A stretch of 64,000 nucleotides of DNA from a virus (taxonomy: Duplodnaviria; Caudoviricetes): positions 2,559 to 66,558 of IMG/VR virus record IMGVR_UViG_3300029305_002894; one strand, 5' to 3'. Under the pieces are notes generated by a model. That model searched no databases. It was not told where the DNA came from and saw only the letters and a list, made by a program, of their open reading frames with translations. The position numbers and the translations under genes were made by a program. Positions 26,940-60,509 of the stretch are shown here, piece after piece (the first letter of the stretch is position 1; every line of letters starts with the position of its first letter).

Positions 26940-26971
26940 TTTCAATTAAAAGTGTACAAATTAAAAATGGG

Positions 26972-27003: not shown

Positions 27004-27148
27004 TTAAAAATAAAATTTATATAAAACAATTATATAATATAAACATTTAAACAATTAACTTTGAAAACAACAGTTGGCTTTGTAGTCAGAGACGCAAAGA
27101 AACTTTAATATAAAGCCAACAAATTCTTACTTAGAAAGGAGAACGAAT

Positions 27149-27697: not shown

Positions 27698-28548
27698 TGA
27701 GCGTAAATTCGAAAATGACGGCATTAGCCGATGCTATTCGTGATAAAACCGGCATAACCAATACTCTTACTTTGGATGAGATGGCGATAGCCGTTCAAGA
27801 CATTGAAGTTGGTGCAGACACCTCTGACGCAACCGCCACATCCGACGAAATCTTTGCTGGTGAAACCGCATACACAGCAGATGGCAAAGTCACTGGTACT
27901 TTTACCATAGAAGAAGAATTAACAGAACAAAATGATTTGATATCACAGATTACGACATTAGTTGCACAGAAAGCAAATCCTCAAGGCGGAACTGACACTT
28001 CTGATGCAACGGCTACGGCGAGTGATATCTTGAGTGGTAAAACCGCTTATGTCAAGGGCTCAAAAATCACTGGTACTATTCCCTCCAAAACGACTGCAAC
28101 TTATACACCAACCACTTCAAACCAAACTATATCAAGTGGAACATATTTGACTGGAACTCAAACAATTAAAGGAGATGCTAATTTAGTAGCGTCCAATATT
28201 AAGAGCGGTACATCTATATTTGGTGTCACTGGTACTTACGAAGGTAGTGGTGGAAGTTCTGGTGGCGGAGGAGTTGAAACTTGTACTGTTACTATGCAAG
28301 GAGGAGCGCCATTAATGGGCAACGAGAAGCTTTGGTATTCTGATGGGACTTCCACTGTACAATCTATATCAATTCCTTCTTTAGGCAACCCAATCACTAT
28401 TACTGTTCTTAAAAATAGTATAGTTTATTCAAATATAACCCTTCGCTCTTCTGTGTGGAATGAAGGCAGTATAAGTTGTCTTACTAGTTCCGATACATAC
28501 GATCAGGCATTCTTTGTAGTGGGCGATGGCACTTTAATATCAGAATAA
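27697..28548 (+). CDS. Thr/Ser/Gly-rich fibre protein
   Basis: ATG 27697 overlaps the previous stop; two DTSDATAT..DI..G.TAY...K.TGT repeats; KGDANLVASNI.SG.SIFGV.GT module. Confidence 0.6.
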   Translation: MSVNSKMTALADAIRDKTGITNTLTLDEMAIAVQDIEVGADTSDATATSDEIFAGETAYTADGKVTGTFTIEEELTEQNDLISQITTLVAQKANPQGGTDTSDATATASDILSGKTAYVKGSKITGTIPSKTTATYTPTTSNQTISSGTYLTGTQTIKGDANLVASNIKSGTSIFGVTGTYEGSGGSSGGGGVETCTVTMQGGAPLMGNEKLWYSDGTSTVQSISIPSLGNPITITVLKNSIVYSNITLRSSVWNEGSISCLTSSDTYDQAFFVVGDGTLISE

Positions 28549-28568
28549 AGACAAGGAGGAATTAAACA

Positions 28569-29771: not shown

Positions 29772-29806
29772 ATAACTTAAAAGGATATAAAAGGAGAAAA
29801 AAGAAT

Positions 29807-30787
29807 ATGAAATTGCAAATTTTAATTCCGCAATACAAAGAAACAGAGGAAATCATTAAACCTCTTTTAGATAGTATCGAAATTCAGCAAAACATTGATT
29901 TAAAAAATGATGTAGGAGTAGTTATAGTAAATGACGGTACAGATGTTCGTTTGTCTAAAGATTTTTTAGACCGCTATACTTATCACATTGACTATTATCT
30001 CAACGAACACAAGGGTGTTTCGGCAACGCGCAACGCATGTTTTGACCACGCGACCGCAGATTACGTAATGTTCTGCGACGCAGATGATATGTTCTACAAC
30101 GCTTGCGGATTATACATTGTTTTCCGTGAAATTGAAAACGGTGGCTTTGATAGTTTGGTTTCTGCATTTATAGAAGAATCAAGAATGCCCGAAACTAAAG
30201 AACCTCTCTATATTAATCACGATATGGATAGCACCTTTGTTCATGGCAAAGTTCATCGCAGACAATATCTCATTGATAATAATATTCGTTGGAATGACAA
30301 ATTAACTATTCACGAAGACAGTTATTTTAATTGTTTGTGCCAAAGGTTGGCGAAAGAATTAAAATATTCTCAAACTTCTTTTTATTTGTGGAAATGGAGG
30401 GACGCCTCTGTATGTAGACACGACCCTAAATATATCTTAAAAACCTACAATAATATGCTTGATAGCAATGATGCACTAGTACAACAATTCTTAAATCGTA
30501 AAAGACAAGAAGACGCTCAGTTTTACGTGGTAGGTATGATTTATGATGCATATTTCACTATGAACAAAGATGAATGGTTAAGTCAAGAAAACCAAGATTA
30601 CAGAAGGGCAACAGAAAAAAGATTTAAGGAATACTGGTTGAAATATAAGCAAATACACGATTCTATTCCTCAAGACATAAAGACGCAAATTATTATGGGC
30701 ATTAAAAATAGAATGTATGGCGAAGGAATGGTACTTGAAACGCTAACATTCAATGAGTGGATTAAACAAGTGGAGGCGATAAAATGA
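29807..30787 (+). CDS. Glycosyltransferase family 2 (GT-A fold)
   Basis: ILIPQYKE, VNDGTD, GVSATRNAC, FCDADD (DxD) and IHEDSYF motifs. Confidence 0.85.
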   Translation: MKLQILIPQYKETEEIIKPLLDSIEIQQNIDLKNDVGVVIVNDGTDVRLSKDFLDRYTYHIDYYLNEHKGVSATRNACFDHATADYVMFCDADDMFYNACGLYIVFREIENGGFDSLVSAFIEESRMPETKEPLYINHDMDSTFVHGKVHRRQYLIDNNIRWNDKLTIHEDSYFNCLCQRLAKELKYSQTSFYLWKWRDASVCRHDPKYILKTYNNMLDSNDALVQQFLNRKRQEDAQFYVVGMIYDAYFTMNKDEWLSQENQDYRRATEKRFKEYWLKYKQIHDSIPQDIKTQIIMGIKNRMYGEGMVLETLTFNEWIKQVEAIK

Positions 30788-30972
30788 TAAAAACTGAATT
30801 ATTAAATGATGGAACATTAATTAAACATTATAGCGATGGGGGCTATTTACTCTTGCAAAACGAAACTGGGGTAAAATACGCAGACCCCATAGATGTTGTT
30901 CCTTGTGCGTATACTTATACGGAAACGAATGAGCCAATTGATTTTGGTGAAGAAGAAAATATTAACGAATAA
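30784..30972 (+). CDS. Small hypothetical protein coupled to the glycosyltransferase
   Basis: 62 aa, 4-nt ATGA overlap with the GT2 stop, RBS GGAGG. Confidence 0.6.
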   Translation: MIKTELLNDGTLIKHYSDGGYLLLQNETGVKYADPIDVVPCAYTYTETNEPIDFGEEENINE

Positions 30973-31007
30973 TATTTCTACAATTAAGGAAGTATTGATT
31001 GATTTTG

Positions 31008-31036
31008 AGAGGTGGTATGCAAAAGCCACCTCTTAT
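31008..31036 (+). terminator. Hairpin terminator
   Basis: AGAGGTGGT-N8-GCCACCTCT stem-loop after the LRR-GT2-small gene block. Confidence 0.6.
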
Positions 31037-31091
31037 TAACATGTCCTTTTAAAGGGGCATAATTATAAACTTTGAAAGGAGGATAAATAAA

Positions 31092-31589
31092 ATGGCTAAT
31101 AGATATATATTTCAACTCCGCAGAGGTTGGAAAGATGATGCCTCCGGAAGAGATGACTGGTCAACATATGAAACTCAAGAAAATCACGTAAAACCCCTTG
31201 AGGGGGAACTTGTACTTGAATACGATAATGGTGTTCCAAGGCTGAAAATTGGTGACGGCATTAATGAATTTAGTGCTTTACCATATATGAGTGTAGATAG
31301 TTTTATTTTGCCGACACCTATCTCTGTTACACTTCACGCAGACAAGTGGCAACAGGCTGACGACAAAAGGTATTATCAAGTAGTAACAGTAGATAACGCA
31401 CTAATTACACCGAATAGTAAAGTGGATTTACAGCCAAGTTCGGAGCAACTGACTATTTTTCACGAAAAAGATTTGGCATTTGTTACAGAAAATGAAGACG
31501 GAGTTGTTTCTGTTTTTTGTGTAGGTCAAGTGCCACAAAATGATTATACAATACAAGCTACGGTTATGGAGGTGGTTATAAATGACTAA
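31092..31589 (+). CDS. Fibre protein with hyaluronidase/Mtd-type N-terminal anchor motif
   Basis: FQLRRG...LEGELVLEYD...LKIGDG..FSALPY motif. Confidence 0.6.
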   Translation: MANRYIFQLRRGWKDDASGRDDWSTYETQENHVKPLEGELVLEYDNGVPRLKIGDGINEFSALPYMSVDSFILPTPISVTLHADKWQQADDKRYYQVVTVDNALITPNSKVDLQPSSEQLTIFHEKDLAFVTENEDGVVSVFCVGQVPQNDYTIQATVMEVVIND

Positions 31590-37700: not shown

Positions 37701-40700
37701 TTGCTAGTTGCTCAATAAAAAAAGCAACAATGCCTTGTATTGCAATGGATAGAGTTTTGGTTGGTAATATTAAAGAAACATTAATTGAGGTTACAATCAC
37801 AACAGGAGATATGATAGGCGAATTCGGTTTTAATAATTATACTAAGCTTAAAAATGTAAAAATTAATAACGTAACTTATATAGCAAAAGGTGCATTCAAA
37901 GGCTGTTCTTCGTTAGAAAATATTATCATTCCTTTTATAGGATCAGAAGAAAATAGCACTATAGAGTATCCTTTTGGGTATATTTTCGGTGAAGATAGTT
38001 ATACAAACGGAGTTGCAACAAAACAATATTACTATCAGAACGGAACTGAAACTTCGGCCACTTATTATATTCCTTCAAGTTTGAAGTCAGTAACTGTTTT
38101 GAGAGGAACAATTCCCTATGGGGCGTTTTATAATTGTAGTAACTTAACAAATATAGAGTTAAGAGATTCTGTTACTAGCATTGAAACTAATGCTTTAAGA
38201 AACTGTACTTCGTTAGAAAGCCTTACTTTGCCCTTTGTAGGTAGCAAGAGTATTAGTGATGAAAGCGAGATGGATTACACTACTGTTTTTGGATATATTT
38301 TTGGCTATAGCACAACCAGTTCTAATGGCGCAACTCATCAATACAGCTCTGGTGGTACAAAATATTATTATTATATACCAACATCATTAAAGTCTGTGAC
38401 GATAACTAACGGAGATCGTCTTTGCAGCGGGTCGTTTTATAATTGTAATATGTTAACTTCAGTTATTATTTCCAAAGCGTGGAGTATAGCTAGAGGAGCT
38501 TTTTATGGATGTACTTCATTAGAACACATAACGGTGCCTTTTGTAGGTGTTGGACACGACAACACTTACGATGAATATGAACAAGGAGATGTTTTTGGAG
38601 CAATTTTCGGCTGGATAGAAACAAGCTCTGATGATGATAGTAATGAAAATACGACTTATCAATATTATTACGAAACATATAATTCAAATGGAGAGGGCGT
38701 AGATCATTGTTGTCACTATTATATTCCTACAAGCTTGAAAACAGTACAAGTATCTGGCTCAATTTTTGAGAGAGCATTTTATAATTGTAAAAATTTAACT
38801 GAAATAATAATTTCAAATAATGGTGGAGCATATTATATAGGCGAAAATGCGTTTTATAATTGTAGATCATTAACAAGTATGGAAATACCTAATGGTGTAA
38901 CTAGTATAGGTAGTAGGGCGTTTATGAGCTGTACTGGTTTGACAAGTATAAAAATATCCAATGGTGTAAAAACAATTGGATCAATGGCGTTTAGTTCATG
39001 TCAAAGTCTTAAAAATATTGTAATTCCTGATAGCACAACAGTTATTGGCTCTAAAGTTTTTTATGATTGTAAAACACTTATAAGCGTAACTATTGGTAGT
39101 GGCGTACAAAGTATTGGTACAGAAGCATGCGATAATTGCATTTCTCTTACAAAAATAAACTACACTGGCACAATAGATGGTTGGGTACAAATTAATTTTG
39201 ATAATTATACCGCGAATCCATTATATTATGCTAAAAATTTATATATTAATAATGAGTTAGTAGAATCTGCGGAACTAACCAATGTAACTACAATATCTCA
39301 ATATGCATTCTATAATTGTAATTCAATAGAAAGTGTAATAATTCCATCTTCGGTTAATAAGGTTGGCCAAGAAGCTTTTTGTGGTTGTATCTCATTAACA
39401 GATGTTTATTGTAGTGACTTGACAAAATGGTACGCAATAGATTTTGCTGATGAAACAGCAAACCCCATGAATAACGCAGAGCATTTTTGGGTAGACGACA
39501 CGCTCATAACCAAAATAAAAATACCAGATGACGTAACCGAAATTAAGCAATACGCTTTTAGTGGTTTTGATGATATAACACGTATAGAAATACCTCTTGG
39601 AGTTACCATGGTTGGTGCTAACGCTTTCCAAGATTGTGTTTCTTCGTCAATTTATTGTAAGGTAGAAAGCAAACCTGATGGTTGGAGTGAAAATTGGAAC
39701 TCTTCTAATCGTCCTGTTTATTGGGGTGTTGTTGAAGATTCTGATTACCAAGGTATAAGTTATCTTTTATACCCCGACCTTGACAAAAATCCAAAAGCAA
39801 TAGTTACTGCTTATGATGGAGTTCAACAGCAATTGATTGTTGACACAGTAGAAAATGGTGGTAAAACTTATAATGTTATATCTATCGATGAAGAAGCATT
39901 TAAGGACTGTATTCCTTTGATAAAAGTTACTATTGGTGAGAATGTAGAGAGTATTGGCGAAAACGCATTCTTGGGTTGTTATAAATTAATTGAGGTATGT
40001 AACAAATCATCATTGTTAATAGAAAAAGAAGGTGTAGATAACGGCTGTGTGGCCCTTTATGCCAAAAATGTATATTCGGACGAAAATGAAACAAAGCTTT
40101 CTTTTAATAAAGAAATATTATACCAAGATGTAATGTCTAATATTTTGGTTGGGTATGAGTATGATACAGCTTCGGCTTTTGCTTTAATAACAAGACAAGA
40201 AAAAGATTTTGTTTTATTGTCAGATGATATCACAGAAATATATCAATATGCTTTCTATGGAAATAAAAATATAACTAATCTCGTTATTCCTAATCAAGTA
40301 ACAATAATTGATACAAATGCCTTCAATATAGATACGGGAGATTCTTTGGTAAAAATATTCTATGAAAATAGCGCAGATAAATGGAATAATATTACAAAAG
40401 GCGGTGTGAATCCCGATGGGTTGCCTATATATTACTATAACGAAGAACAGCCTGCGAATGGTCTCTTTTGGTATTGGAACAACCAAAATCAATTTAAGAT
40501 ATCTGCTAACAAAGACGACAATTATTTGATTGATACTAGTTTATTCAAGGTTGGTTTTGATGGAAAAATTAGAGCGGTTGATGGGGATTTTAGTGGCACG
40601 ATAGAGGCAAATGGTGGTACTATAGGAAATCTAAAGATTGAGAATGGAATAAAGGGTTATGATGGTGACTTAGAAATGTTCGCTTTCACCAACGATGGGT

Positions 40701-43609: not shown

Positions 43610-46600
43610 ATGCCGAATGAAAATATTAAAAAATGGGTCATAGAGATGGATGCCAACACAGAAAAACTTAGAAAAAAGTTAGAGGCTGGCGAGCTCTTAA
43701 AACCAAAAGAAGTACAAAAATTACAAAGTTTTCTTAAGAATATTATAGGCGTTGCCGCAAAAGACGCAGAAACCATTGGTAAAAAAGTAAGCGCTGGATT
43801 TAAAGATATTGATACCAAAGGCCTCGAAGACGCTCTTGAATTCATTAAGGGCATGTTTAAGGATATTAACAAAGGTAAAAATCCTATTAGCGATTGGGCT
43901 ACCGAAGGAGAGAAAACTTACAAGAGATTCTCTCAATTGGAAGCTAGCGTTTCAGAATTAAAAACAACTACAGCAAAATTGGGTGTTGATATTGCTAATG
44001 TTAATCAACAAATGGCGACACTAAATGCTAATACTGACAAGTTTATTCAGTCTTATAAAGCTATTAATCCAAGCAAATTTACTGGAGTTAAAAAAGGTGT
44101 TACTGATACTATAGTTGTTACTAAAAAATTAGATGATACATTTAAGGCTTTGGGAAAGAATACTAGTGGTATTGATAAGGGTTCTAAAAAACTGAGCGAT
44201 TATATAAAATTATGGGAAACGGCCACTGGTAAAAAATATACATTTAAGTTAAGCAAAGATGTAGATTCTCAGTTAATAAGTCTAAGCGACAAACTTGAGA
44301 CGGCAGAATATAAAGTAATCGAACTGCAAAATAAATTGTCTTCAATGCCTACTGACACAAAGTTGCAAAAACAATTTAAAGATGCACAATTAGAATTAGC
44401 AAAACTTTACATACAAGTACAGGATTTTGAAGAAAAATCATGGGGTGACGTAGGTGAAGATTTTGGTTTAGACTTAAAGAAAATACAAAAAGATCTTACC
44501 GAAATACTTGGTAATTTTTCTAAAAAACTTGAGCAAGTTGTTGATAAGATGTCTACCATTAAGATAGACTTAGGGCTACCGGAATATTCGGATTTTGCTA
44601 ATAAAATTAATAACTTTATTGATGGTATAAACGCAGGCAAAGGTGGTACGCTTAAAGATGTCAACCTTACCGCAAAGATTGCAAATGTTAAAGATGTTCA
44701 ATCTAGTGGAATTGATGTTGACACAAAACCAGAAAAGAAAACTAAATCAACAGAAAAATCACCAACTTCAAAAAGATTAGAAGATGAAATTGCAAAATTA
44801 CAAAAGCAAGTTTCAGAAAAAAATACTCAACTCAACGAATTAAAAGCAAAACAAGCTACCGATGATACAAACGATAAACAAAAAGCAGGTTTTCAAACTC
44901 AAATCGATCGTGTTGATAAAGAAATTAAGGCACTCGAAGGCTCTATTGCCGATTACCAATACTTAATTAAAGAAATTGAAAGCAATCCAGGTAGTGGTCT
45001 TGCCAGTGAAGTTAGAAGGTGGCAAACTACTGAAGCTAATATTGGTAGAGCACAAGACCGTATTTTACAAAAAACTAAAGAGTGGAAAAATGAAATTATT
45101 AAAGCCATGACGGTTAGTTCGGAAGAGCTAGACTTTGAATATGGCTGGGACAAGAGTGTGAATGTTGGTGCACAAAACCTAAAATCCGCACTTGAAAACT
45201 ATTTCGCAGATTCGCCTATCAATATTACAATTAATACCGATAGTATTGGTGAGCAAATAAAAGCCGCCATAGAAGAAAAAGGTGTTACTCTTGGTTCTAG
45301 TGGAGGAACGGCTCAATTAAATTCACAAGAAGTTGTGGATATGATTATGTCGTTATTGACTGGTGCGAATGTTAGTGCACAGTCTGAAAAAGCCGTAGTA
45401 GAAACAAAGCAAGAAATTGCCCAACAAGAAGCGGAGGCTGTGAATGCCACTAGTAATGCTGTACAAAACAACACAGAGAAAACTGTAAGATATGTGGCTG
45501 CATTAGACAAACTTGATATCAAATTTACAGATATAATTAGCGCAATCACAGAATTTGCCAACGAGACTATTAATGCCAAAAAACCTGCCAAGGGTGGCAA
45601 AAAAGCACAAGGTCAACTTTCCGCTTGGGGTTTCGATTTTAAGAAAATAGCAAAAGGAGAGTTAAACGAAGCTGATTTTGTTACAATGCTCCAAAATGCT
45701 ATGATGAAAGTTAATGATGATGGTGGTGTACAAGGTGCTCGTGTTATAAATTATTTACAGGGTATTTTGGATGATCCTAAGAATAATTTTGACATAACAT
45801 CTGGTATGGGTGCCGTTATTAATAGGCTTAAAGAACAATTAACGGAACTATTAACACTTTCTGGAGTTAATGTTGAACATGAACTTGCACAGCAAAGACG
45901 TTATGAGCGTTTTGAAATTTATAATAATGTTAAGGATGCGGGTCGCAAATTAGATTACTTGCGACAAATTGGATATACGTCAGTATATAATGATGTTAAG
46001 GCTCGAAACGTACCAGAAATTGAAAAGATTGAAAAAGTACGAAATAAACTAAAAGAAGATGGTCGCAGTACATCTAAATTTGATGAGTTACTAGAACTAA
46101 CTAAAGATTTTAACAACCTTGGTATGTATGATCAAACAGCAATAGACGATTATTGGAATACAGTCGAGTATATGTTTGAAAAACCACGGAAAATATACGA
46201 AAAACTATACGGTCAAGTAAAAAATTTTCAATTCGAAATTGACACCGATAAGGGCACAAAAGAAACAAGTGGGGGACGTGGATATTTAAGCATCCCAGAA
46301 GATGCAAACATTAAAGAAGTAAGAATATACCCTACTCAAGCTTACTTAAACACACACAAGGGCGAAGAATTGCCCGCTTATTTCAATGATAGGCGCAAGC
46401 CACCAAAACGAAATATATTAACAGAAGACCTAGAAGGTGTTACACCATTTAATATTGCAGAAAGAGAAGATGGTGGTATTCGTGGTGGAGATAAAGGTAT
46501 TGACATATTACGCAATACTGCCGAAAAAGCACCAGAGTTGGAGACAAAAGCCAATGAATTGGATGCAAAAATACAAGAATTAATTGACACAATTGAGTTG

Positions 46601-49600
46601 CTTAAAAACGACGTAATGCGTTTGACTCGCACAGAAACAACCAATGTTAGTTTAAAGTCATTAGCTGAAATTGGTACGGAAATTATAAAAACTGAAAACG
46701 AATTAAAAACATTACAAGGCGATTTGAGTGCTGAGTTAGCAAAAATGTCGTCGTATAAAAAAGAAATTCAAGAGATTGAAAAATACAAGTCATATTCTAA
46801 AGAAGAATTGAGTGCAATTGAAAAAGATGCAAGCGACAAAATAGGTCAACGCATGGCACTTGATGCTTTTGAAAGCTTGCGCAATTCTAAAAACCCAACA
46901 AAAGATGCTATTTTTAACGCACGTCAAAAAATGTCCGTATTGGGTGATGACACTATCAACAAAGAGCTTGAATCTTTGTATTCTGAAAGATTAGAATTAG
47001 ATAAAATTCTAAACGACAAAAAGGTTTCGAAAACACGCAAAAACACTGCTCAAAAATTATTTGATCAAAAATTTAATAATTTTATCGCAATGATAAACCA
47101 AGATGCGTTTGATGTTTTATTTAAACAAACAAAAGATGTCAACTTACAATCTGAAACAAAACGTCAAAAAAGAGCACATACTGCTTACTGGGAGCCACAA
47201 AAGTTAGATACGGAAATTGACGACATTAATAAAAATGTTGTTGTTTCAGAGAAAGAACAGTCTAAAATTCAATCAAAGATTGACGAAACTAACAAACAAC
47301 TTGAAAAAAACAAAGCAAATCAAGCAAAAGAAATTACAAAAATTTCTAATATTTTCAAAGAAGTTAAAAGCACATTGCACAAGGAAGCCGAAGATTATGT
47401 TAAACTATTGCAAACCTTAGATCCAAAAAACGAAGGTTATGAAACAGCATTAGCAAAACTACAACAAACTATAGGGGCTATACAAAGTACGCAATCTGTT
47501 TTTGAAAAGTTTAAAAAATCAACTGGTAAAACTAGAAGTAAATTGTTCAGCAAAAATGAAACAAAAGCCATTGACAGTTGGACAGCACAATTTGTTACAG
47601 ACAAACCAGATGTTTTAAGCGACACTCAAGGATTGTTGGTAGATAGAGAAAATGATTTAAATGCCGCAAAAACAGAACGATTAAACACAGAAAATGCATT
47701 AAAAGATGCTACAAATAAGCAAAACACATTAAGTGTTGCTGAAAAAGAAATTGCGTTTGCAAAAGAATATAATCGTTTATTGGCCGAGGAAGAACAACAT
47801 CTTGCCAACATTGCTAAGTTAAAAAAGCAAGGTGCAACCCAAGATGATATTCGTGCAGAACAAGAAGCACTTAATGCTACACGAGAAGAACTTAATAATT
47901 TTCTTGCTAACAACAAAAATAATGATAGACATTTGTATGCACTAGATGAGGCTAAAGAATATACATTACAAATATATAAAGCCAACAAGCAATATTATGC
48001 CGCGGAAAAAGAACTAAATAAAATCAAAAAAGAAGAAGCGGATTTAAACAAATATCCTTTGTTTACACAGGGTGCTGGGCGTTACGAGTTAGACGATTAT
48101 AAAACCGAGTTAGCAAACAAGCGTGCGAAGGAATTCGAGGATGCCGAATACGCTCGACTACGTGAAAAATGGGGCGGTAAGCGTAGACGTGATATATCTG
48201 ATGAAGATTTGGCCGCATATGATGCAGATTACAAACAGCTCGATGAGGACGTTAGGGCGGAACGTAAGCGATATAAAGATTCGTTAAAGGCAGTTACCAT
48301 TGATGGTATTACGCAACTTGCAACCATAACCACTAAAACTGTTAATGGTGTTACCGAAGAAGTTGTTGATGAGGTTATCGATAAGAATTTAAAAACCACA
48401 TTAGCTAAACGCTTAAGAATAGATAGTCGAAAAGAAAACGCACAAAACATTTATGATTCTCGTAAAGATACCGTTAAAGGTCTTGAACGAGAAAAAGAAA
48501 AGGCAATGCGATACGGACAAGTTACCGACGAAGAGGTTGAAAACGATAGTCTTGTTCGAAAACAAAAAGAATATATTGATAAACTCTTTAAGCTTCAAGA
48601 AAAAGAGAAACAATTGGTAGCACAATATGATAGATTAGATAACGAAACAAAATTATATCGTGACAAAAAGAAAAACCAAATGAGTCCCGAAGAGACTGAA
48701 AAGGTTAAAAACTTTAAAGACACAGCTAAAGAACTTGAGAGGGTTCAAGAGCAAATAGATGATTATACAACTCGTGTTGAAAACTACACAGCGGTTATTA
48801 ATCAAAAACCAGAATACACAAAACAAGAAAAGGATGCTACCGTTGAGTTAAGCAAAGCAACTGAAAAACTTACTCATGATAAAGCAGAACTAGCTAAAGT
48901 TCAAACCGAAATTACCGAGTTAGAAGAAAAATACAATGCAATTGCTGACGGTACTCCTGAAAAAGAAGCGGCTTTAGCTGAGTTAGAAAGAAAAAGAAAT
49001 TACCGAGATTCATTAAACAGTAGAATTGACAAAGGTCGTTTAAGTGCAACTTATTGGGCTGGACAAACTGGTAAAACAGAAACTCAACCTGAAACTTCTA
49101 CGCCTACAACAACATCAACCGAAACCACAACTATTAAGGGTGGTTTGTTTGGTGCCCTTGCTGATAGTATTATAAACGGCGTTCGTGAAGGATTTAGTAG
49201 TGTAAGTTTAGACCCAAATCAGTCTGGCATTGCTACGGAAATTACACTTCGTGCAATATTTGATTTACTTAGTGGTGGTGGTGCTTACGGTGAAGAACTT
49301 GATAGAAAGCACGCCGCTTGGCAGGCCGGACATCCTATGGTGCAACAACCTTCTAGGTCTACTGAAATTTCTAGCGAGGAAGAAAAACAAGAAGAAAAAC
49401 CTAAAAAAATAAGTAAAACTCAACAGCAAATGGCGAGATTATCCGAAGAAGGCCAAAAGGTTTGGAAGGATATTACCGATGCTGCTAAGAAAACAAAAGA
49501 AGAAATTGAGGGTTTAAAGAAATCGACACTAACCAATAAGATGTCAAAGTTAGCGCAAGAGGTTTCTACCGAAAGTGATACTGCTACAAAACTAAGGAAA

Positions 49601-52600
49601 CAAGCGCAGTTAACCGAAATGTTCTATGCTTACAAAGGCAAGGATGGTAATTTTGACGATGCTGTTAAAAAGGTAACTGCTTTAAAAGCATTCCAAGGTA
49701 TAACTGATTTTGAAAAGATGCTACTAAGAGACTACAAAGCTCGTGGTGACGCACTTATTAAAGCAGGTTATGGTATTGGTGAGAAGAGTGGTAACTTAGG
49801 TAGAGAGACAAATCCCAAAGCAGATTATAAGGTTGCCGTTGATATTGTTTCACAAGCTCTTAGGGAAGCAGGTTACAATGGAAACATTAAGAACCCAGAA
49901 AAACTTGCAGCGATATGGAGTAAAATAGATAACGAAACAGTTCGTAATGCTGGTAACTATTTGGCTAAAGGTCAAAAAGACGGTATCGAAACAGTGAAAG
50001 GTAAAGCATTGCTTGATGCAATGTTGAAACTAAAAGATGTTGCAATTAAATTACAGCAATCTAAGACTGAAACTATTAGTGGAAAGACTGGCGTAAGTGA
50101 TGAAGTTAAAGCTCAAATATTAGCTTTATTACCAGATATTAAAGCAGAAATTGCCGAAATAAAAGCAGAGATGTCTGAAACTGGTAGCAATCCAGAAAAA
50201 GAAAGTAGGTTAGCAAGTTTAACACAAAAAGAAAATCAAATTACGCAACTATTAGGTCAAAAAGCCGAAGAACAATCGGCCGTAGATGAAGTCGAAGACG
50301 AAGTTCAGACACCACAAACTACCACAGCACAAGGCGGCTTGCCTGCTTGGATTCAAGGCATAACAAGTGCAGTGCAAGGGTTAGACACTGGTACTCTTGC
50401 TAGTATGTTAGGAGTGCAAAAAGAAATTCTTGAGGGTGTTAATATTATCTCTCGTCGTAATTCAGCTGGTAGACCCAATGGTGCTACGGATTTATATGAA
50501 GATTTCCGTAGAATGCTTGAAAGCGATAAGTGGGAAGGCAGAGAACGTGCTAGGTATATGGACTACCAAACTGGTGCGATATCTAATCATATTACTGGAA
50601 CCGTCACAGAGTTAACTGGCGAAGCACTTGATAGATTGTATTCAAATTACACTAAAAGTATGACAATTAATACCCAATTGCATTCACATGCTGGGTTTAA
50701 TGAACCATATTTTTCATCTAAAGATCTATCAACTTTTGTAGATTCTAAAAAGAACAAAGGTATTAGTAAGCAAATTTTAATGTCTGATAAAAACATTACA
50801 TTGCTTGATTTGTCTGAAGTTGCAGACACTAAATTGCAAGAGCTTGTTAATACTCTTACAAATACAGAAAACGACTTTGATAAACTTGGCGAAGTTGCTA
50901 AAAAGTATGGAGCACGCTATGAGACATTGGCGTTTAACGATTTTGAAAAAGATATTACACCACAAAAGCTTACAAAATTTTTAGGCATCAAGGGTGTCGA
51001 ATCTAAGCTTAACGCAACCGAAACCAAGGATGCTGCTATTCAAGGCGTGGCTGAAGAAGCCGCAAAAGAAGCAGCACATGTAGTACAAAAATCAAGTGGT
51101 GCAGCAATCAAGACAACATTTGAGCGTGCTGGTCTTGAAATGCTTAAACACATTGAACAGACTGATGCAAAAGGTAATAAAACTTGGACTACTGATGCTA
51201 GTAATAGATATCAAAAACATATTGGTGCTACTTATAAAGATATTGCTGAACAAAATTTAGGCAATGTTTTTGGAAAAGGAACGGACGCACAAAAAGCATT
51301 AGTTGAATACGAAAATCATTATACAACGCTTAATGAACTTGTTAGACAGTTTAAAACTGCTGATGAAAGTAGTAAGGTTGGAATTCAAACACAAATCAAT
51401 GAGTTAATTCCTACCTTTGATAAGGCAGAAAAGAAATTGCTCGGTTTAATTGCTCGTAAGGATAAGTTCTTAGGCGACGACCAAGCACTTGATACAACCT
51501 TTGGAGCAAAAGAACTTACAAGTCCTCGTAAAAATCTTGAGAAACTTGCTCGTCAAATGTATGGTGGTAATGTTAACCCTGGTGGAAATGTAGCGTTTGG
51601 TGGCTATAAGCGTGGCCAAGGAAGTGGACAGTTATTCGTTGATGTACTTGACGGACAAACTAAAACTATTAAAACACATGTATTAGAAGTTGATAAAGCA
51701 ACTGGTAAAGTTAAAGAATATACTCTTGCTGAAAGTGCACTTAGTAACGCATTCCAAAATGTTAACAAGGCAATGAAGCAAAATGTTAACGTGCTTGCCG
51801 ATATTGCTATTGGTGATGGTCCTAAAAAACAAGCTGAATGGATGGCAAATGCTAGCTCACCACTTTTAGATGCTTATAAAAACACATTCAGTGAAATGCA
51901 AAATTATACAGCACAACTTTTAAATAGTGGCAAAGCACCTTCTCAACAACAACTTGATTACTTGATGCAATTATCCGAAAGGGTAATGGTGCTCGGCAAA
52001 GAGTTACAGAAAACTTCTGGTGAGTTCAAAAACCTTTGGGACGCAAACCCTGATAACATAATCGGAATAGACTTCCATGAGGGTGATACTGCAAGAAGTG
52101 CTATGGAACGCTATGCGGAAATGAATGCTAAGGCAAACACTTCTAAATACGAATTTACAAGCTTTGATAATGACACACTTAAGTACAAGTTAACCAATGT
52201 TAAAGGTGAAGTTCATAATGTTACATTAGAATGGAATGAATTGTATGAAAAAGTTAGAGTTGTTTCGGACAAATCTGTTGGGGCACTCGATCCGTTGGTT
52301 GCTAAAATCGAACATTATAAACAAACGGTTGCTGACGCTAAAGCTAACGATTATTTGTTAGACACAGATGATGCTGAATTTAATGATGCACTTAAAGAAG
52401 TTGAAGAGTTACAGGAACAAGTTAAAGAAGGTACGAAAGACTATAAAGATCTTGAAGAAGCTCGTAGAAAGGCTATTAAAGTAGGCTCTAAGACCGAAAA
52501 GTTAGCAAAGGATAACGAGAAAAAATATGCTGGTACTAACGAGTTAAGAAGTGCTGAAAGACAGAATACTAAAATTCTTGGCACTTTACCTGACACATTT

Positions 52601-53542
52601 GACAAAGAAAAATCTAAGCAATTTCAAGCATATCAAGCAGCTTACAACCAACTTATTGACAAACATAAAGAGTATGTTGATAATAACAAAATGGCGGGTG
52701 TTGACGAACAAAAAGATCTCCAACAACGAGCAGCGTTGGTGCAAAAACTTGGAAAACAATTCTTAGCATCTGCTAATGAAGCTGAAGAGCTAAAACAGAG
52801 AGTTGAGAGTTCGGGTTCATTTATAAACAAGCATGGAAAAGAAACAAAACTTGGTGGCACCAAGGAAGTTTCAACAGAAGGACTTAAGAATCTTAATATC
52901 CTCATGCGCGAGTATGCTAAAGAGGTGCTTGGCGCCGAATTGGCACATGCTAAATTTAATCCTACAACTCGACAGTTAACTGGTGAAATTAGGCAAAACA
53001 ATAAAGTTGTTAGCGACATGGTGGTTAAATATAATGAGGCCACTGGACAGATGTATTTATTCCAAAAACAAGAAAGAGAATCACTTTCTGGATGGCCGGG
53101 ATTAATACATGGGTTTAAGGAAAAGTCAAAAGCAATTGTGCAATACCTTGCAAGTATGACCTCTATTTACAGAATATTTGGTATGATACGACAAGGTATC
53201 ACTTATATAAAAGAAATTGACGCAGCACTTACCGAGTTGCGTAAAGTAACAGATGAAACAGAAGAAACTTATAATAAGTTTTTAGAGACTGCAAGTGAAA
53301 CCGCATTTAGACTTGGTAGTACATTAGTTGAAGTAACTAATGCTACGGCAGAGTTTGCAAAACTTGGGTACTCTATGGAAATGGCTGCTGAAATGGGCGA
53401 AGCGGCGTTAGTTTATGCCAACGTTGGTGACGGCATTGGTAGCGCACAAGAAGCGGCTGATAGTATTATTTCAACATTAAAAGGTTTCAAGCTTGAAGCC
53501 GAAGATGCAATGTTGATTGTTGATAAATTTAACGAAGTGGGT
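43610..53542 (+). CDS. Tape measure exon 1 (3,311 codons)
   Basis: Coiled-coil ORF ending in the TP901-type core (EIDAALTELRKVT...IVDKFNEVG). The ORF track reads on 10 codons into intron 1. Confidence 0.85.
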
Positions 53543-56500
53543 AAATTGTTGCCCTTAGATAACTATATAGGTTAAAAGCCAGGGATGGTTGAGACCTAGG
53601 AAAGACTTGATATTCATAACAAAACAAAACAATCAAAATAATAGGAGGTGAGAGTATGGTATTTCAAAATTTAGTAGGACAAAAATTTGGTTTATTAACC
53701 GTGCAATATAGGGTTGATGATTATATAAAACCAGACGGAAGAAGGGTGTCTAGATGGCATTGCGTTTGCGAGTGTGGTGGACAGAAAGACGCGACAATGG
53801 AATATTTAAAAAGAAATAAATTACCACCATCGTGTGGCTGTTTAACACATAAAAATAGAGTAGAGAAAAACAGAGAAAGTTTTCTTGGTCAAAAATTTGG
53901 AATGTTAACTATTATCGAAGAAAATTTTGATACTCATCTAACCACAGCAACGTGTTTGTGTGATTGTGGTAAAACAATTATAACCACCAGAGCAGACGTG
54001 GTTAGTGGACATACTCAATCATGTGGTTGCCTGCAAAAACAAAGAGCGTCTGAGGCAAATACCAAAGATTGGATTGGATGTGTATCAGATTATGGTGTTA
54101 AATTTTTAAATCGTGCATATCTCAATAGTGAAAATCAGTGGTTGTGGAAATGTAAATGTGGTATTTGTGGTGGTGAATTTATTGCTTTGCCTGCCAAAGT
54201 TAATAATGGTCATATTACTTCGTGTGGCTGTGCTATACAGTCGGCAGGAGAACGATATGTCGCGTCATTATTAGATGGAATGGCGGTGTCATATGATAAA
54301 CAATATAGTTTTTCTGATTGCAAACATAAACAGGTTTTGAGATATGATTTTGCTGTTTTCAATAATAATAAAATATTATATTTAATCGAATATAATGGTA
54401 AACAGCATTATGAACCAATTGAATTTTTTGGCGGGAAACAAGGGTTTAAAAATACTGTAACTAGAGATGTAATCAAACAAGAATATTGTGATACACACCA
54501 TATTCCACTTTTAATTCTACCATATACATTAACCAACGAAGAAATTAAGCAGAAAATTTATGAATATCATTTATCCTTAACGACTGCAGGATGTGCATAG
54601 TAATATGCATATTGAAGTTATCCTTGCATATGCAAGTAATATACAGTCTGAACTCGTAATATAATCTCTATATAAAATACGAGAGATAGGCCGAAAGACC
54701 TATCCGCCACAATATGTGGTCAGTAGTGAATTCACGAAAGTAACAGTTCGAACGACTTCGCCATTACTTCAAAGGGTATTGGCGATGCATTAATGAAATC
54801 AGCATCAGCGTTGAGTGTTGCCGGTAACACGATTGATGAATCGGTTGCGTTAATTACGGCAGCAAACGAGGTGGTAAATTAGTGCCACGTGATTATGGTA
54901 ACATAGTCACTAGTAGATAACTATATAAGTCAAAGGGTGTGGTTCACCAGAGACTTAGGAAAGACTAACAAATTATTATGCATAGTAATTTATTTTTATC
55001 CTCAGAGACTGCGGGAGGTTAATGGTAACATTAATCTTGAAGTTATCCAACCTATTTTATTAGGTTGTAATATACAGTCCAAACTCACGCAATAAACCAT
55101 TTATATGAAACGTGAGAGATAGCCAGAAATGACTATCCGCCATAGAAATATGGTCAGTAGGTGTGGGAACCGAAAGTAATAGATTGACAAGACCCCGATT
55201 CTGTTGGAACGGCGCTCAAGACGCTAACACTTCGCATTAGAGGTGCAAAAACAGAATTACAAGAAGCTGATCTCGATGTTGAAAATATGGCTAACACCGT
55301 ATCTTCACTTCAACAAAAAATACTTGGCTTAACAGCAGGCCGAGTAGACATTATGGCTTCGAATGACGAATTCAAGTCAACTACACAAATCCTTAGAGAG
55401 CTCGCTGCCGTATGGGATACCATGACGGATATCCAACAAGCCGCGTCTCTTGAAGCTCTTGGAGGAAAGAGACAGGCAAATATTCTTGCCTCTATTATAA
55501 CTAACTTCAGCACAGTTGAAGATGTTATAGCAACATCACAAGGTAGTGCTGGTAGTGCGCTTGAAGAAAACGAAAAACGTTTAGATTCCTTCCAAGGTCG
55601 TCTAAACCAACTTACAAGTACTATTCAAACAAAATGGTCAGAAGCGCTTGATACAGAGTTAATAAAAGACGCAATTCAACTACTTACCAAACTAGTTAAC
55701 ACATTAGATTTTAAAGACAGCGCGTTAATAGATTTACTCGATCTCTTAATGAAAGGTTTATCTGGTCTTATGGACTTCTTCGGTGACAACAACCTTGGTT
55801 ATACTCTTATAGCTTTCTTCTCAGCTAGATCTTTAAATAAAAATGGAATATTAGATTTCTTTACAAAAATTAAAGATACTGGTGAGGAAACTATCGAAAG
55901 TTTAACTACTGATATATCTAATTTAAGAGCAGAAAACGAGAAGTTGGTTAAGAAAGGCAAACGTTCTGGTGTTGTTGGTAAAACAAAAGCTAACCAACAG
56001 ATAGCTTTAAACAACGAAGAGATTAAACAAAAAGAAGCGAAGATTACAGAGCTTCAAACTCAAAAAACTAAAGAGAATACTGTGGCTAACGAGCAGAATG
56101 CACAATCTGTTCAACAAGTTGCTAATGCGGAAACTACAGAAAATATAGCCGCACAAAAAGATATAGCTACTACTCAAACCGACAATGTGGTAACTGACCA
56201 AAATACGATTAGCAATCAGCAAAATGCAACATCTAATCAACAGGCTGCAATTGCGGAAAGCACAGATACAGCTGCTACACAAGCTAATATTAATGCAACT
56301 CAGGCTGATACCGTAGTAACTCAACAGAATACAATAGCTAACCAAACAAATGCTAATTCAAATGTAAAAGTTGGTAAGTCTGCAAAGTTAGCTGGCAGTG
56401 GGTTTAAATCTATGGCTGCGGGTATGCTTAAAACCATTGGTATAACATTGGTCTTACAGGGTGCGTTTAGTTTAATAGATGCTATTACAAAAACAATAAA

Positions 56501-59500
56501 AGAATCTACAGAAGATACAATGGACACCTATGAGGAATTGCATGAACATTTTGATGTAATGAGTTCCGATCTTTCCGAACAAAAATCCGAGCTACAAAGT
56601 CTTGAATCTGAATTTGATACCATTCAAGAACAAATTCGTGACATTCAAAAACTTGGTTCCTTATCGTTTACTAAACAAGAGGAATTAAATAATCTCCAAA
56701 AGCAAAGTGCTGAGCTCGAGCGTCAAATTGAGATGCAAAAAATCATCACTCAAAATCAACAGTTAAAAACCAATACTGCCGCTTTAGATGCGGCGACTGC
56801 TTATTTGGGTGAATCTGCCGAAACAGATAAGGCAAGAGCCGAATTCATAGAAGAGGAAACAGAAAAAACAACTCGTTGGACTGATAGTATTGGTGATGTG
56901 TTAATGGGTGCCGGTGCTGTTATGGCTATGATTCCTACAATTGGATGGGTAGCAGGTGCAATTACAGCGGGCGTTGGTGCATTAACAAAATTTGGTGGTA
57001 AGCTGATAGCAGAAAATTCAGCCGAAAACAAATATGACGCACAACAAACCAACAAGCAAACTATCGATAATTACGAAACTAAAAGAAAAGAATTGCAAGC
57101 CGAAATGGATAAGGCATATGCCGAAGGTAATACTGAAAAGTGGAAAGAAGCTCAACAGAAGCTTAATGACTACGAAGGTATGGTTGCTGAAAACATGGGC
57201 CAAATCCAAGAATATATTTCTAGTGTCGATTATAGTACGCTTACAGAGCAAGAAAAGGCACGATATGAAGAGTTAAATCGTATTTTAAATAAATATTCTC
57301 TCGCAAACGGTGGCTCTATTACAAATGCCGTTGGTAGCATTCTTGATTATGATAAGTTTGAACAAACTGGCTATCAAATGGATGCTATTCAAAATCAGCT
57401 CAAAAATGGTGACATTACTTCTGAACAGGCAACACAACAAATTAGAGAGCTACTTAACGCTTCACCTTTATTACGCGAGGAATTAACAAATCTTGGTCTT
57501 GACATAGAAGAACAAGTTATCCCTTCATTTGTACAACTTGGCGAAGCAATGAGAGAAAATGCATCGCTAATGGATTCTCTCGATAAAATTTCAGCAGTTA
57601 CAAGTGCCTTTGATGACCTCGGAAATGCTGTACAAGAATTCCGCACAGAAGGTAGAGCATCTACTGGAACGCTTGAAAGCTTAAATGAAAAATTCGGTGA
57701 AATTGATGGTTTTGAAGAGCTTTATAAAGTTTTAGCAACCGGCGAAGGTGATCTTGAAGGTGCTATCACTAATGTCGCAAACGCTTATGTAGGACAAATT
57801 CAAGCATTAAGTGGCTTAACTGACGAAGAGATTGAAATTATGAAATCTCGTCTTGCCGCAATTGGTGTATTAAATGCCGATGAAGTTATTATGGCAAGAC
57901 AGAAGGGACAACAAATGCTTGAAGACGCTGGTCTTACTTATGGTATTGATTTACAAAACTATGGTACCACCGAACAAGCAAAGGTTGCCATTGCCACGGC
58001 TGCTGGTCTTAACATTGCCGATATTGGTGATGATGAAATTGAAACAATGGCTAAACAGTATGGCGTAGACCTTACTAATTATGCTACCAAAGAAGAACAG
58101 AAAATTGCTATCGCACAAGCTCGTGCAAAAGCGACCGCCGAAATTGATAAAGCTGAGTTAAAAAAGAAATACGATAACAAAGAAATCGACTATTCCGAAT
58201 ACATGACTGGTGTTGAAAAGATAGATAGTTCTATTAATTTTTCAACTAACAAAGATGAAATTTGGAACATTGTCAATAATGCGTTTAAAGATTTTACATT
58301 CGATTTCAATGGTCAAATTGGCATTGGTTCAGACTTTGATGAAAAAACTGGTATGTCTGATGAGCAATCTAAGGCTTGGGAAGAACTTCTTAAAAAATAT
58401 CAACGTGAGCTTGATTTCCTTGCTCACCAAAAAGACCTTATTCAAGCTGAAATAGATGAGGCTGAAGCTAAAGGTTTTATTGCTTCTGAAAAATATTATG
58501 AAGACTTAATTGCGCTCGAAAAAGATGAGCAAGCAGTTCTTATTGCAAAACAAAAGGCAATGCAAGACTTCTATAATGCAAACTCAGCAAGTATGTCAGC
58601 CGACCAAATTGATGAGTGGAACTCTGAAATGCGTGAAACAGCACTTGCTATACAAGAAGCTGAAAACAATATGATTGAGTTCGGTAACACAATCGAAGAC
58701 GTCAAGTGGGAGTATTTTGAAAACGTACGAGAAGACATTGATGCCATAAACGAAGAAATAGAATTTATGCACAGTCTACTCGAAGATGCACCTGTTGCTG
58801 ACGAAAATGGCAATTGGTCAAATGAAGCACTTACACGACTTGGGTTGTATACTCAACAAATGGAAGAAGCGGCATATAGCGCACAAGATTATCAACAGAA
58901 GATTGATGAATTAAACGAATCTACAACGGATGAAGAAAAGAATTCAGATAGATACCGTGATAAGCTTGCGGAATTAGTTGATGGACAACGTGAGGCTATT
59001 AACTCATATGAAGATGCCAAAGATGGTATTGTTGAGCTTAATGAAGCTCGTATTGAAGCAATAAAAGAAGGCATTGAAAAAGAAATAGAGGCCATGAACG
59101 ACCTATTGGATGTTAAGCGCGAAGAGCTTGATGCCGAAAGGGATTTATATGACTTTAAAAAGAACATAGAAGAACAAAATAAGAGTATTGCCGATACTGA
59201 GCGTAAGCTTGCTGCACTATCTGGTTCAACGGCCGCTGAAGATATTGCCGAACGCAAACGTCTCGAAGCTGAATTGCGTAAACAACAAGGCGATTTAGAT
59301 GACACATACTATGATCACTCAATGACAGCTCAACAAAATGCACTTGACGAAGAAGGTCGTTATTTTGAAGAAGCTCAACAACGTCGTATAGAGTCACTTG
59401 AAGCTATGCTCGAAAACACCGAAGAGCTTATCGTTAATTCAATGATGGATGTTATGCTTAACGCTGACACGGTTCATAATACACTAAATGAACAAGCAAA

Positions 59501-60509
59501 CACATACGGTGTAACACTTTCTAAAGAACTCACTCAACCTTGGCTTGATGCTTCTGCACAGGCTATAAAATGGCGTGATGAACTCAAGAAAGATATGACT
59601 GAAGGCGAATGGGCAACAATGATTGGTGAAGGTGGTGCGATTACTGCGTTCTCTAATGGCGTTGCTACAAAACTTGGTGGCTCTTGGGATACAGCAAAAA
59701 CCAAAGCCAAAGCATATTCTGATTTCCTAACTGGCACAGAGCTTAAAAATAATTTATCTGGAGCCGTTACTACATTTACAACTTATCTTCAAAAGATTGT
59801 TGATAAATGGGATGAAATTCGTAAAGCTGCAAATGCCGCTGTATCAGTTACGCCTACTGTTCCTAGCGGTGGTTATACTGGCGGTGGTTCTGGTGACAAT
59901 CCAACCCCATCTCCAAGTCCTACGACTCCCAAAAAAGAAACTCCGAAAGCTAAATCGATGCACGCAGATGGACAATTATATGCAAGAACGGTTGTACCTA
60001 CAAGTCTTACTTCAACACATAAAACTGTTGGTGGTGTAACATATGTACCAATTCCAGGTACTGATTATTATGTTAAAAAGAGTGATGCGCCATTTGGTAG
60101 TGCACCTTACGGCACAAAGAAATATAAGTATTATGCTAAGGGTAGTTTAGGCGTAGATAAAGACCAATGGGCTATCACAGATGAGTATGGCCCAGAACTT
60201 ATGCTTGTTCCAGATGGTACGGGTAAATTGAGTTACTTAAAAGCGGGTACGGGTATCGTGCCAGCCGATATGACACAAAAACTCTTCGAACTTGCTCAAA
60301 TCCCAACGAGTGATTTGATGAGTAAGAACATGACCGCTATTGTGCCAAATATTACAAAGAACGAATTCAAGAACGAATTTAACTTTGATTCATTGGTACA
60401 TGTGGACCATTGTGATCAAAATACTTTAAAAGATTTAGAAAAGATGGTTGATAACAAAATTAACCAATTTGGAAAACAAATGAACTATGCCTTAAAGGGT
60501 ATTAAATAA
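43610..60509 (+). CDS. Tape measure protein, spliced join(43610..53542,54751..54875,55187..60509), 5,126 aa
   Basis: TP901-type core reads continuously after splicing: IVDKFNEVG|NDFAITSKGIGDALMKSASALSVAGNTIDESVALITAANEVV|QDPDSVGTALKTLTLRIRG. Exon lengths 9933+125+5323 = 15381 nt = 5127 codons including stop. Confidence 0.9.
53543..54750 (+). mobile_element. Group I intron 1 (1,208 nt, IA-like) carrying an endonuclease ORF
   Basis: Exon ends GGGT, pairing with IGS GCCC through a U.G pair; P3 GATAACT(53558)/AGTTATC(54616); P7 GACTG(54582)/CAGTC(54644); P7.1, P8 and P9 hairpins; terminal G54750. Confidence 0.9.
53656..54600 (+). CDS. Intron-encoded putative homing endonuclease (three Cys-rich repeats plus Vsr/DUF559-like nuclease domain)
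   Basis: Three G.KFG.LT...C.C.CG...SCGC-like units; C-terminal SAGE...YDF...IEYNGKQHY...RDVIK...IPLLILPY; own RBS GGAGGT; 3' end overlaps the intron core. Confidence 0.8.
   Translation: MVFQNLVGQKFGLLTVQYRVDDYIKPDGRRVSRWHCVCECGGQKDATMEYLKRNKLPPSCGCLTHKNRVEKNRESFLGQKFGMLTIIEENFDTHLTTATCLCDCGKTIITTRADVVSGHTQSCGCLQKQRASEANTKDWIGCVSDYGVKFLNRAYLNSENQWLWKCKCGICGGEFIALPAKVNNGHITSCGCAIQSAGERYVASLLDGMAVSYDKQYSFSDCKHKQVLRYDFAVFNNNKILYLIEYNGKQHYEPIEFFGGKQGFKNTVTRDVIKQEYCDTHHIPLLILPYTLTNEEIKQKIYEYHLSLTTAGCA
54751..54875 (+). CDS. Tape measure exon 2 (125-nt micro-exon, missed by the ORF track)
   Basis: Translates NDFAITSKGIGDALMKSASALSVAGNTIDESVALITAANEV plus GT, the missing segment of the TP901-type core. 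Confidence 0.9.
54876..55186 (+). mobile_element. Group I intron 2 (311 nt, ORF-less, paralog of intron 1)
   Basis: Exon GTGGT pairs with IGS GCCAC (U.G); P2 GTGATTATG-GTAA-CATAGTCAC; P3 GATAACT(54916)/AGTTATC(55041); P7 GACTG(55007)/CAGTC(55075); terminal G55186. Confidence 0.9.
55187..60509 (+). CDS. Tape measure exon 3
   Basis: In frame with the ORF-track ATG at 55287 (33 codons after CAA 55188); two hydrophobic segments; C-terminal YAKG...AITDEYGPEL tape-measure motif. Confidence 0.85.

Follow-up and report, generated by a model that had tools for sequence, protein, structure and literature searches.

Organization of the tape-measure locus

The subject of this report is the gene for the tape-measure protein (TMP) in a 64,000-nucleotide (nt) stretch of viral DNA, here called the window (positions 2,559 to 66,558 of IMG/VR record IMGVR_UViG_3300029305_002894). 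The window belongs to a 66.5-kb IMG/VR viral contig, estimated to be 41% complete, from an uncultured bovine-gut phage (Duplodnaviria; Caudoviricetes). In a list of open reading frames (ORFs) the gene appears as two pieces, of 3321 and 1740 amino acids (aa), and the 1.7-kb stretch between them contains a third ORF, of 314 aa. We consider it very probable that the two pieces belong to one gene, that the core of the TMP is interrupted by a pair of related group I introns on either side of a 125-nt exon, and that splicing joins the exons in a single reading frame; we also propose that the introns spread by homing. The features at the locus are the following.

43610..53575, + strand: upstream ORF of the ORF list, 3321 aa
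43610..53542, + strand: TMP exon 1, 9933 nt, 3311 codons, ending ...FNEVG inside the conserved TP901-type core
53543..54750, + strand: intron 1, assigned to group I, 1208 nt
53656..54600, + strand: predicted homing-endonuclease gene (HEG), 314 aa, intact, in the P6 loop of intron 1
54751..54875, + strand: TMP micro-exon, 125 nt (41 codons plus 2 nt), encoding NDFAITSKGIGDALMKSASALSVAGNTIDESVALITAANEV(V)
54876..55186, + strand: intron 2, assigned to group I, 311 nt, credible ORF absent
55187..60509, + strand: TMP exon 3, 5323 nt (1 nt, 1773 codons and the stop codon), beginning (V)QDPDSVGTALKT
55287..60509, + strand: downstream ORF of the ORF list, 1740 aa

The reference for the exon joins was the uninterrupted TMP of Brevibacillus phage Sundance, which was compared with the window by tblastn. 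Three high-scoring segment pairs were obtained that are contiguous on the query: the first extends through Sundance aa 848 and ends at window position 53542, the second (aa 849-890, 50% identity) covers window positions 54751-54876 and represents the micro-exon, and the third begins at aa 891 and at window position 55188. The frame closes exactly across these joins (9933 + 125 + 5323 nt make 15381 nt: 5126 codons and the stop), with a valine codon, GT|A, split by the second junction; the micro-exon has no start codon of its own, and the 15.4 kb of exons are free of stop codons. If the micro-exon were passed over and exon 1 joined directly to exon 3, the reading frame would change and would close 17 codons further on. 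The predicted spliced junctions read GAAGTGGGT|AACGAC (exon 1 to micro-exon) and GAGGTGGT|ACAAGAC (micro-exon to exon 3), the peptides spanning them would be ...FNEVGNDFAITSK... and ...ANEVVQDPDSVGTALK..., and an intron-less allele of the first insertion site (site A, see below) is predicted to contain ...GAAGTGGGTAACGACTTC....

The conserved domains of the protein are distributed over the same exons. TIGR01760 is matched in the last 110 aa of exon 1 alone (39 bits; cut-off 28.8), and PF10145 is divided, its positions 2-85 falling in the end of exon 1 and its positions 130-201 in exon 3, where the match lies in frame upstream of the ATG of the second ORF. The 44 missing positions of PF10145 are the translation of 54751-54873, a gap equal to the size of the micro-exon. 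Annotated TMPs were matched in 84 phage records when the TMP was used as a tblastn query. Alleles that lack the inserts fit the predicted joins, at both sites in the Sundance TMP and, for intron 2, in a metagenome DNA contig described below. An initial annotation of this DNA, made from the sequence alone, had joined the ORFs at 43610 and 55287 through a hidden exon at 54751-54875 and had claimed that splicing would restore both the frame and the conserved core exactly; its coordinates turn out to be exact, and the comparison with an intron-less homolog that it put forward as a check agrees with both joins.

The spliced TMP would be 5126 aa long, which is very long in comparison with siphovirus-type tape measures, and its conserved core lies only beyond ~3150 residues.

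Anatomy of the two introns

A T precedes each of the two inserts (53542 and 54875) and a G closes each of them (54750 and 55186), as the initial annotation had pointed out. In P1 the guide of intron 1, GCCC (53551-53554), pairs with exon GGGU and that of intron 2, GCCAC (54884-54888), with exon GUGGU, a U.G pair marking the 5' splice site in each case. Immediately upstream of its guide, intron 1 has bases that can form a 5-bp P10 (UUGUU/AACGA) with the 3' exon. Other helices were located as follows.

Intron 1, P3: 53558-53563 with 54617-54622
Intron 1, P7: 54582-54586 with 54644-54648
Intron 2, P2: 54889-54910, GUAA loop (P2 is present in intron 2 only)
Intron 2, P3: 54916-54921 with 55042-55047
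Intron 2, P4: 54926-54931 with 54952-54957
Intron 2, P7: 55007-55011 with 55075-55079
Intron 2, P7.1: 55015-55038, GUAA loop
Intron 2, P8: 55048-55067
Intron 2, P9: 55084-55116
Intron 2, P9.1: 55118-55137, GAAA loop
Intron 2, P9.2: 55139-55154

Intron 1 has no P2, and its ORF sits in the loop of P6. P7 (GACUG/CAGUC) crosses P3 (GAUAAC/GUUAUC), which is the topology of a group I core; L2, L7.1 and L9.1 are GNRA tetraloops, and the flanks of P7, CAGAGACUGC... and ...UAAUAUACAGUC, look by eye like the classical R and S elements. The helices quoted in the initial annotation are present in the sequence, together with the compensatory changes that it had reported between the introns in P1 and in P4 (AGGTT/GACCT versus AAGTC/GACTT), and to them can be added P2 (intron 2), P5, P6, P9.1, P9.2, a further 3' hairpin and P10. 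When intron 2 was folded with 8-nt flanks, the minimum free energy structure contained P1, P2, P3, P4, P5, the P6 extension, P7.1, P8, P9, P9.1 and P9.2, that is, every non-pseudoknot helix, with a z-score of -4.4 relative to 100 shuffled sequences, none of which (0/100) gave an equally good fold.

Other classes of insert (a group II intron, an intein and a translational bypass) were considered and rejected, given that domain V and a reverse transcriptase are absent, that both inserts contain in-frame stop codons and that the fold is that of group I.

Covariation among relatives

Scanning IMG/VR for the motif P3'-P8-J8/7-P7' yielded 26 loci, in all of which the rest of the intron is present. 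The motif scan of bacterial genome contigs also yielded 26 matches, six of which are real (in metagenome-assembled genomes of Lachnospiraceae and other Clostridia); the other 20, which are without the remaining intron motifs, were set aside as chance matches.

Applied without guidance to ten ORF-less members of the family, RNAalifold recovered P4, P5, P6, P7, P7.1, P8, P9, P9.1 and P9.2; 33 of the 54 pairs carry compensatory changes. For the 3' half of a curated structure (22 members), 95% of the cells are paired, as compared with 78% after shuffling and 23-40% with the partner slid, and double changes occur in 31 of 44 pairs; for P4 and P5, counted over 21 members, 99.5% of the cells are paired and compensation is seen in 8 of 10 pairs. 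When both structure counts are combined, 39 of the 54 scored pairs show compensation in a set of ~25 relatives drawn from other phage contigs. Close members of the family do not vary in P3 and P7; in the diverged ones these helices covary, and P3 changes from GAUAAC/GUUAUC to GACAAC/GUUGUC and CCUAGC/GCUAGG, and P7 from GACUG/CAGUC to GAUCA/UGAUC.

The guide sequence likewise covaries with eight different exon ends across 18 relatives, the U.G pair always being kept. The exon/guide combinations are GGGU/GCCC, GUGGU/GCCAC, UAGGU/GCCUA, GAGGU/GCCUC, CAGGU/GCCUG, GCGGU/GCCGU, UCGCU/GGCGA and GGAU/GUCC. Such comparisons of sequences provide strong evidence that the inserts represent functional RNA with the architecture of group I introns.

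The predicted nuclease gene of intron 1

The 314-aa ORF of intron 1 is preceded by a Shine-Dalgarno-like AGGAGG, and its product combines three Cys-rich N-terminal repeats with a putative C-terminal Vsr-like PD-(D/E)xK nuclease domain. The final ~9 codons of the ORF (..LSLTTAGCA-stop, window 54570-54600) overlap P6', J6/7, P7 and the 5' arm of P7.1, and this overlap between the end of the ORF and the intron core is kept in the ORF-bearing relatives. Matches in the PHROG database, where the annotations are HNH, homing or intron-encoded nuclease, include phrog_559 (E 2.9e-36), phrog_9084 ('homing endonuclease', 4e-26) and phrog_7140 ('intron encoded nuclease', 8e-18). Full-length homologs number more than 1000, at 52-73% identity, and many of them contain PF10881, a domain that the 314-aa protein itself matches at 18.8 bits, below the cut-off of 24.7.

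A phmmer search of the protein against PDB sequences gave no credible match. In the AlphaFold2 model (pLDDT 84), the C-terminal domain resembles Vsr (1cw0, 1vsr) and I-Bth0305I (3r3p) by Foldseek, with a probability of 1.00 and E values of 0.008-0.04 (TMt 0.75 for 1cw0 and 3r3p), and residues D231, E245, H251, D271 and K274 are invariant among the nuclease homologs. On the strength of this model we regard the protein as a predicted homing endonuclease of the Vsr / I-Bth0305I type.

Covariance models and points against the intron assignment

R1, a small covariance model built from this intron family, matches intron 1 (119.8 bits, in the 3' half) and intron 2 (128.2 bits). A weak match at window 39245-39338 (E 0.61) was taken as chance, and no other credible extra match was seen in the window; in 150 further genomes from one bacterial host's family, searched with strict filters, none was found. 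Elsewhere in the window, Rfam models place a DUF3800-XI RNA motif at 5392-5439 (45.6 bits), followed by six tRNA genes between 5660 and 6648.

Several observations weigh against the assignment of the inserts to functional group I introns. The Rfam model RF00028 (cut-off 50 bits) gave no match on the window or on its 2.2-kb and 341-nt pieces, at the gathering threshold and at E<=10, nor on the whole record at E<=1, and one relative reaches only 19.9 bits; the initial annotation had named an empty covariance-model search as grounds for abandoning the introns, and with RF00028 the search is, taken literally, empty. R1, for its part, did not match the RF00028-type introns of Geobacillus virus E3 and of the locus L017, so the link of the family to canonical group I introns is one of architecture, not of profile. 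P10 of intron 2 amounts to 2 bp, and residue 247 of the nuclease, which is D in 28 of 32 homologs, is N here. Finally, the introns are only candidate members of subgroup IA, in which two additional helices, P7.1 and P7.2, separate P7 from P3'; in the window family this interval holds one hairpin, P7.1 (10 bp with a GNRA loop, compensatory changes in 9 of its 10 pairs), a second one was not found there, and P9.1 and P9.2 are extended.

The weight of the RF00028 result can be gauged from two phages that served as controls. T4 has three strong matches (105, 40.3 and 35.7 bits), two of which lie below the cut-off; in Staphylococcus phage Twort, the three introns of orf142 score 64-101 bits and the other matches 23-47 bits. 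That such models can overlook phage introns is also stated in a published account (PMC11878797). Because matches in T4 and Twort also fall below the cut-off, and because all the structural hallmarks are there and show covariation, we judge the RF00028 miss to be a limit of the model and not decisive; the lineage of the window is further from RF00028 than are the introns of T4 and Twort.

One might read the same facts to mean that the inserts are decayed, non-splicing relics and that the TMP is either broken or made as separate N- and C-terminal proteins. Such decay would fit the failure of RF00028 to find either insert, the absence of a direct spliced read and the practice of public records, which give such pieces as separate genes (in Geobacillus virus E3 and Thomasclavelia phage TR-TP1). 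It would not lead one to expect that all core helices are intact in both introns, that the 15.4 kb of exons would lack a stop codon and the 125-nt exon a start, that the cuts fall inside one conserved domain, or that the phage is circulating, with variants in several bovine-gut metagenomes. We regard decay as highly improbable and continue with the interpretation of the inserts as introns that would be spliced.

Insertion sites and origin of the introns

The intron family is almost confined to TMP cores, in which it occupies at least five sites. Numbered on the Sundance TMP, these are:

Site A, 848|849: intron 1 and eleven others
Site B, 890|891: intron 2 and the introns of loci L028 and L016
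Sites C, D and E: near 909, near 900 and near 985, respectively

Locus L016 has the same A plus B layout as the window, with a micro-exon of ~114 nt. At L012:4868-5860 (minus strand), three introns of the family lie in one TMP core, separated by exons of 132 and ~51 nt, and the second of them shows covariation in P3 (CCUAGC/GCUAGG) and P7 (GAUCA/UGAUC). At L017:5822-7142, three group I introns occupy 1.3 kb of the TMP core, the first inter-intron exon being ~100 nt long; here two RF00028-positive introns (79 and 70 bits) flank one member of the window family (6232-6491). In Geobacillus virus E3 (NC_029073; L006:3381-3682) an RF00028 match of 48.7 bits lies exactly at site A, between gp42 ('tape measure N-terminal') and gp43 ('C-terminal'), which are probably one spliced gene. 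Introns recognised by RF00028 are found at the same TMP sites in E3 (48.7 bits), L017 and phage TR-TP1 (54.6 bits). Among 50,697 phage records, blastn of the region returned short HEG matches and Thomasclavelia phages only, and blastn of intron 2 returned Thomasclavelia phages only.

The proximity of two related introns raises the question of a recent local duplication or transposition within the TMP gene. The cores of the introns are related and their 5' flanks resemble each other (AACGAAGTGGGT versus AACGAGGTGGT), but their 3' halves are just 69% identical, and the closest relatives of each are found elsewhere: site-A introns in other phages share 83-88% identity with intron 1, and for intron 2 the best match, at 79.5%, is the site-B intron of L028. 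A separate lineage occupies each site, the L028 intron having ~1 kb extra with a nuclease gene in its P6 loop, whose product differs in its N-terminal region, and a near-identical strain lacks intron 2 only. We hold a recent duplication to be very improbable. Given that it most closely resembles an intron of L028 that occupies the same site and bears a HEG, intron 2 is an ORF-less derivative of a nuclease-bearing site-B lineage and not a recent copy of intron 1. The site-A intron at L029:2386-2675 is 88% identical to intron 1 in the 3' half and has had its nuclease gene deleted; it retains the last codons of the nuclease ORF, which marks it as a deletion derivative.

Strain variation in the cattle gut

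The stretch is present in DNA metagenomes of cattle gut and faeces, and variants occur in several bovine-gut metagenomes. A 39.8-kb DNA contig from a near-identical phage omits exactly 54876-55186 (intron 2) and has both intron 1 and the nuclease gene (nuclease 99% identical); the gene call for this strain is one ORF of 1803 aa that runs from inside the micro-exon into exon 3. Relative to this strain, at most 20 of 2233 letters differ (0.9%) in window 52526-54758 (the end of exon 1 plus intron 1), at least nine differences are found in the last 117 letters of the micro-exon, and 129 of 1711 letters differ (7.5%) in exon 3. Across 52526-56897, identity to a co-circulating strain (metagenome contig X1) is ~99% over the end of exon 1 and intron 1 and ~92% from the micro-exon on, and upstream of 52435 it is ~83%, a mosaic pattern in which the 3' splice site of intron 1 forms one of the edges. 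These contigs suggest that a recently exchanged block ends at that splice site, and a sharp edge there is what would be expected after homing with one-sided co-conversion.

The phage is also represented in bovine-gut metatranscriptomes (X14, X19 and X20). Contigs from RNA libraries were treated with caution. One metatranscriptome contig joins 54875 to 55187; its micro-exon variants are those of the intron-2-less DNA strain, and it keeps the 3' part of intron 1 without the HEG. It may represent a DNA-level allele or a partly spliced RNA, and we do not count it as evidence of splicing. Two other contigs consist almost only of intron 2, with a depth of 9-18 as compared with ~0-2 on the exons; this could reflect either a stable excised intron or a break in the assembly graph, and it was not counted either.

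In cattle-gut samples, strains that differ in the presence of intron 2 and of the HEG occur together, and it can be asked whether introns that splice are kept because they benefit the phage, either through nuclease-based interference with intron-less co-infecting relatives or through the timing of tail assembly. According to a published account (PMC11620839), an intron nuclease confers a competitive advantage in phage PhiPA3, and the coexisting strains together with the sharply bounded block of high identity at the intron 1 splice site are compatible with such a role. The same patterns are, however, to be expected from plain selfish homing, and the patchy presence of introns over at least five sites, along with the HEG-deleted intron of L029, follows the usual cycle of gain, decay and loss. 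A benefit to the phage seems to us unlikely. Nothing points to a regulation of tail assembly through splicing; the pattern fits selfish elements, and the introns are most likely selfish passengers rather than a control device.

A scenario for the interrupted gene

The anatomy of the introns, their exact boundaries, the covariation and the presence/absence polymorphism are observations. We would account for them by supposing that two members of a single lineage of mobile group I introns have entered the TMP gene by homing, at sites separated by 42 codons within the best-conserved region of its 5126 residues. Each intron, once transcribed, would fold as a ribozyme whose guide pairs with the last bases of the exon through the U.G pair. 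Catalysis would then follow the group I pathway, which begins with an attack of guanosine on the 5' splice site, after which the released exon end attacks behind the terminal G; with both introns removed in this manner, the three exons would form a continuous reading frame. The nuclease of intron 1 presumably cuts intron-less alleles, whose repair would spread the intron, and intron 2 is an ORF-less derivative of a nuclease-bearing intron that occupies the same site in other phages.

A broader reading joins these elements, and we offer it tentatively, as possible though on balance doubtful. The introns might constitute a distinct, RF00028-invisible group I lineage (P7 GACUG/CAGUC, single P7.1) that has radiated in the TMP cores of large gut Firmicutes phages through retargeting of its guide to at least five sites, with modular nucleases of the Vsr type driving sharply bounded exchanges of TMP sequence and perhaps a competition between strains.

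There are practical consequences for annotation. Gene finders and public records split such TMPs into two or three genes plus an 'HNH endonuclease' (E3 and TR-TP1 are examples), which conceals a protein of 5126 residues and skews predictions of tail length. RF00028 overlooks this lineage wholly, and the alignments and the small covariance model could seed a better one. The coexistence in the cattle gut of strains that differ in intron 2 and in the nuclease gene offers a natural system for studies of homing; it implies no new mechanism.

Comparison with known systems

The window is an ordinary example of a selfish-element habit that is known in phages. The initial annotation presented the arrangement as one not known to have been described, a view that has to be given up, since multi-intron TMP genes have been published (PMC2504315, PMC10448857), as have tandem introns in a tail gene of Twort. 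In prophages of the Bacillus cereus group, group I introns are described at three TMP sites (TMP-IVS1, IVS2 and IVS3a/b; Tourasse & Kolsto 2008, PMC2504315), several prophages having two introns per TMP gene, with related IA2 introns retargeted via P1/P10 and some introns without a HEG; the same paper tabulates a TMP intron in Lactobacillus phage JCL1032. The resemblance to the window, which we draw from the descriptions only, extends to the use of several TMP sites, the presence of two introns per gene, the retargeting of the guide and the loss of the HEG in some cases. The hosts and phages are different, and a 125-nt spacing does not figure in what that account says of these introns.

For the Vibrio phage ICP1, RNA-seq and RT-PCR have demonstrated that the TMP transcript is spliced, and the authors describe TMP as a 'frequently interrupted gene' (Barth et al. 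2023, PMC10448857). As in the window, HEG-bearing intron(s) interrupt the TMP; the nucleases of ICP1 are of the HNH-3 type and its host is Gram-negative, whereas the predicted window nuclease is Vsr / I-Bth0305I-like. A further case of similar group I introns set close together in a gene for a tail structure is orf142 of Twort, in which three stand in tandem and alternative exon skipping was observed (Landthaler & Shub 1999, cited through PMC3073962 and PMC11878797). By the coordinates of their RF00028 matches, these introns lie ~80 and ~50 nt apart. This gene is a small virion structural gene beside the tail sheath gene and not a tape measure, and its introns score 64-101 bits with RF00028, where those of the window score nothing.

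I-Bth0305I, from the recA group I intron of Bacillus phage 0305phi8-36 (PDB 3R3P), has a catalytic domain that superposes on that of the window nuclease with a root-mean-square deviation of 3.5 over 120 columns; identity is only 17% (Foldseek E 0.04), and the comparison covers the C-terminal domain. Among cultured gut phages, a parallel is found in Thomasclavelia phage TR-TP1 (PQ571309, L059, record 23364-31193), whose TMP is annotated as three pieces, separated by two genes labelled 'HNH endonuclease' (DUF2726 type). The first insert of TR-TP1 is RF00028-positive (54.6 bits) and the second matches R1 (95.8 bits); its introns are not annotated in the record, and its middle exon is 2.2 kb long, as compared with the 125 nt that separate the two introns of the window.

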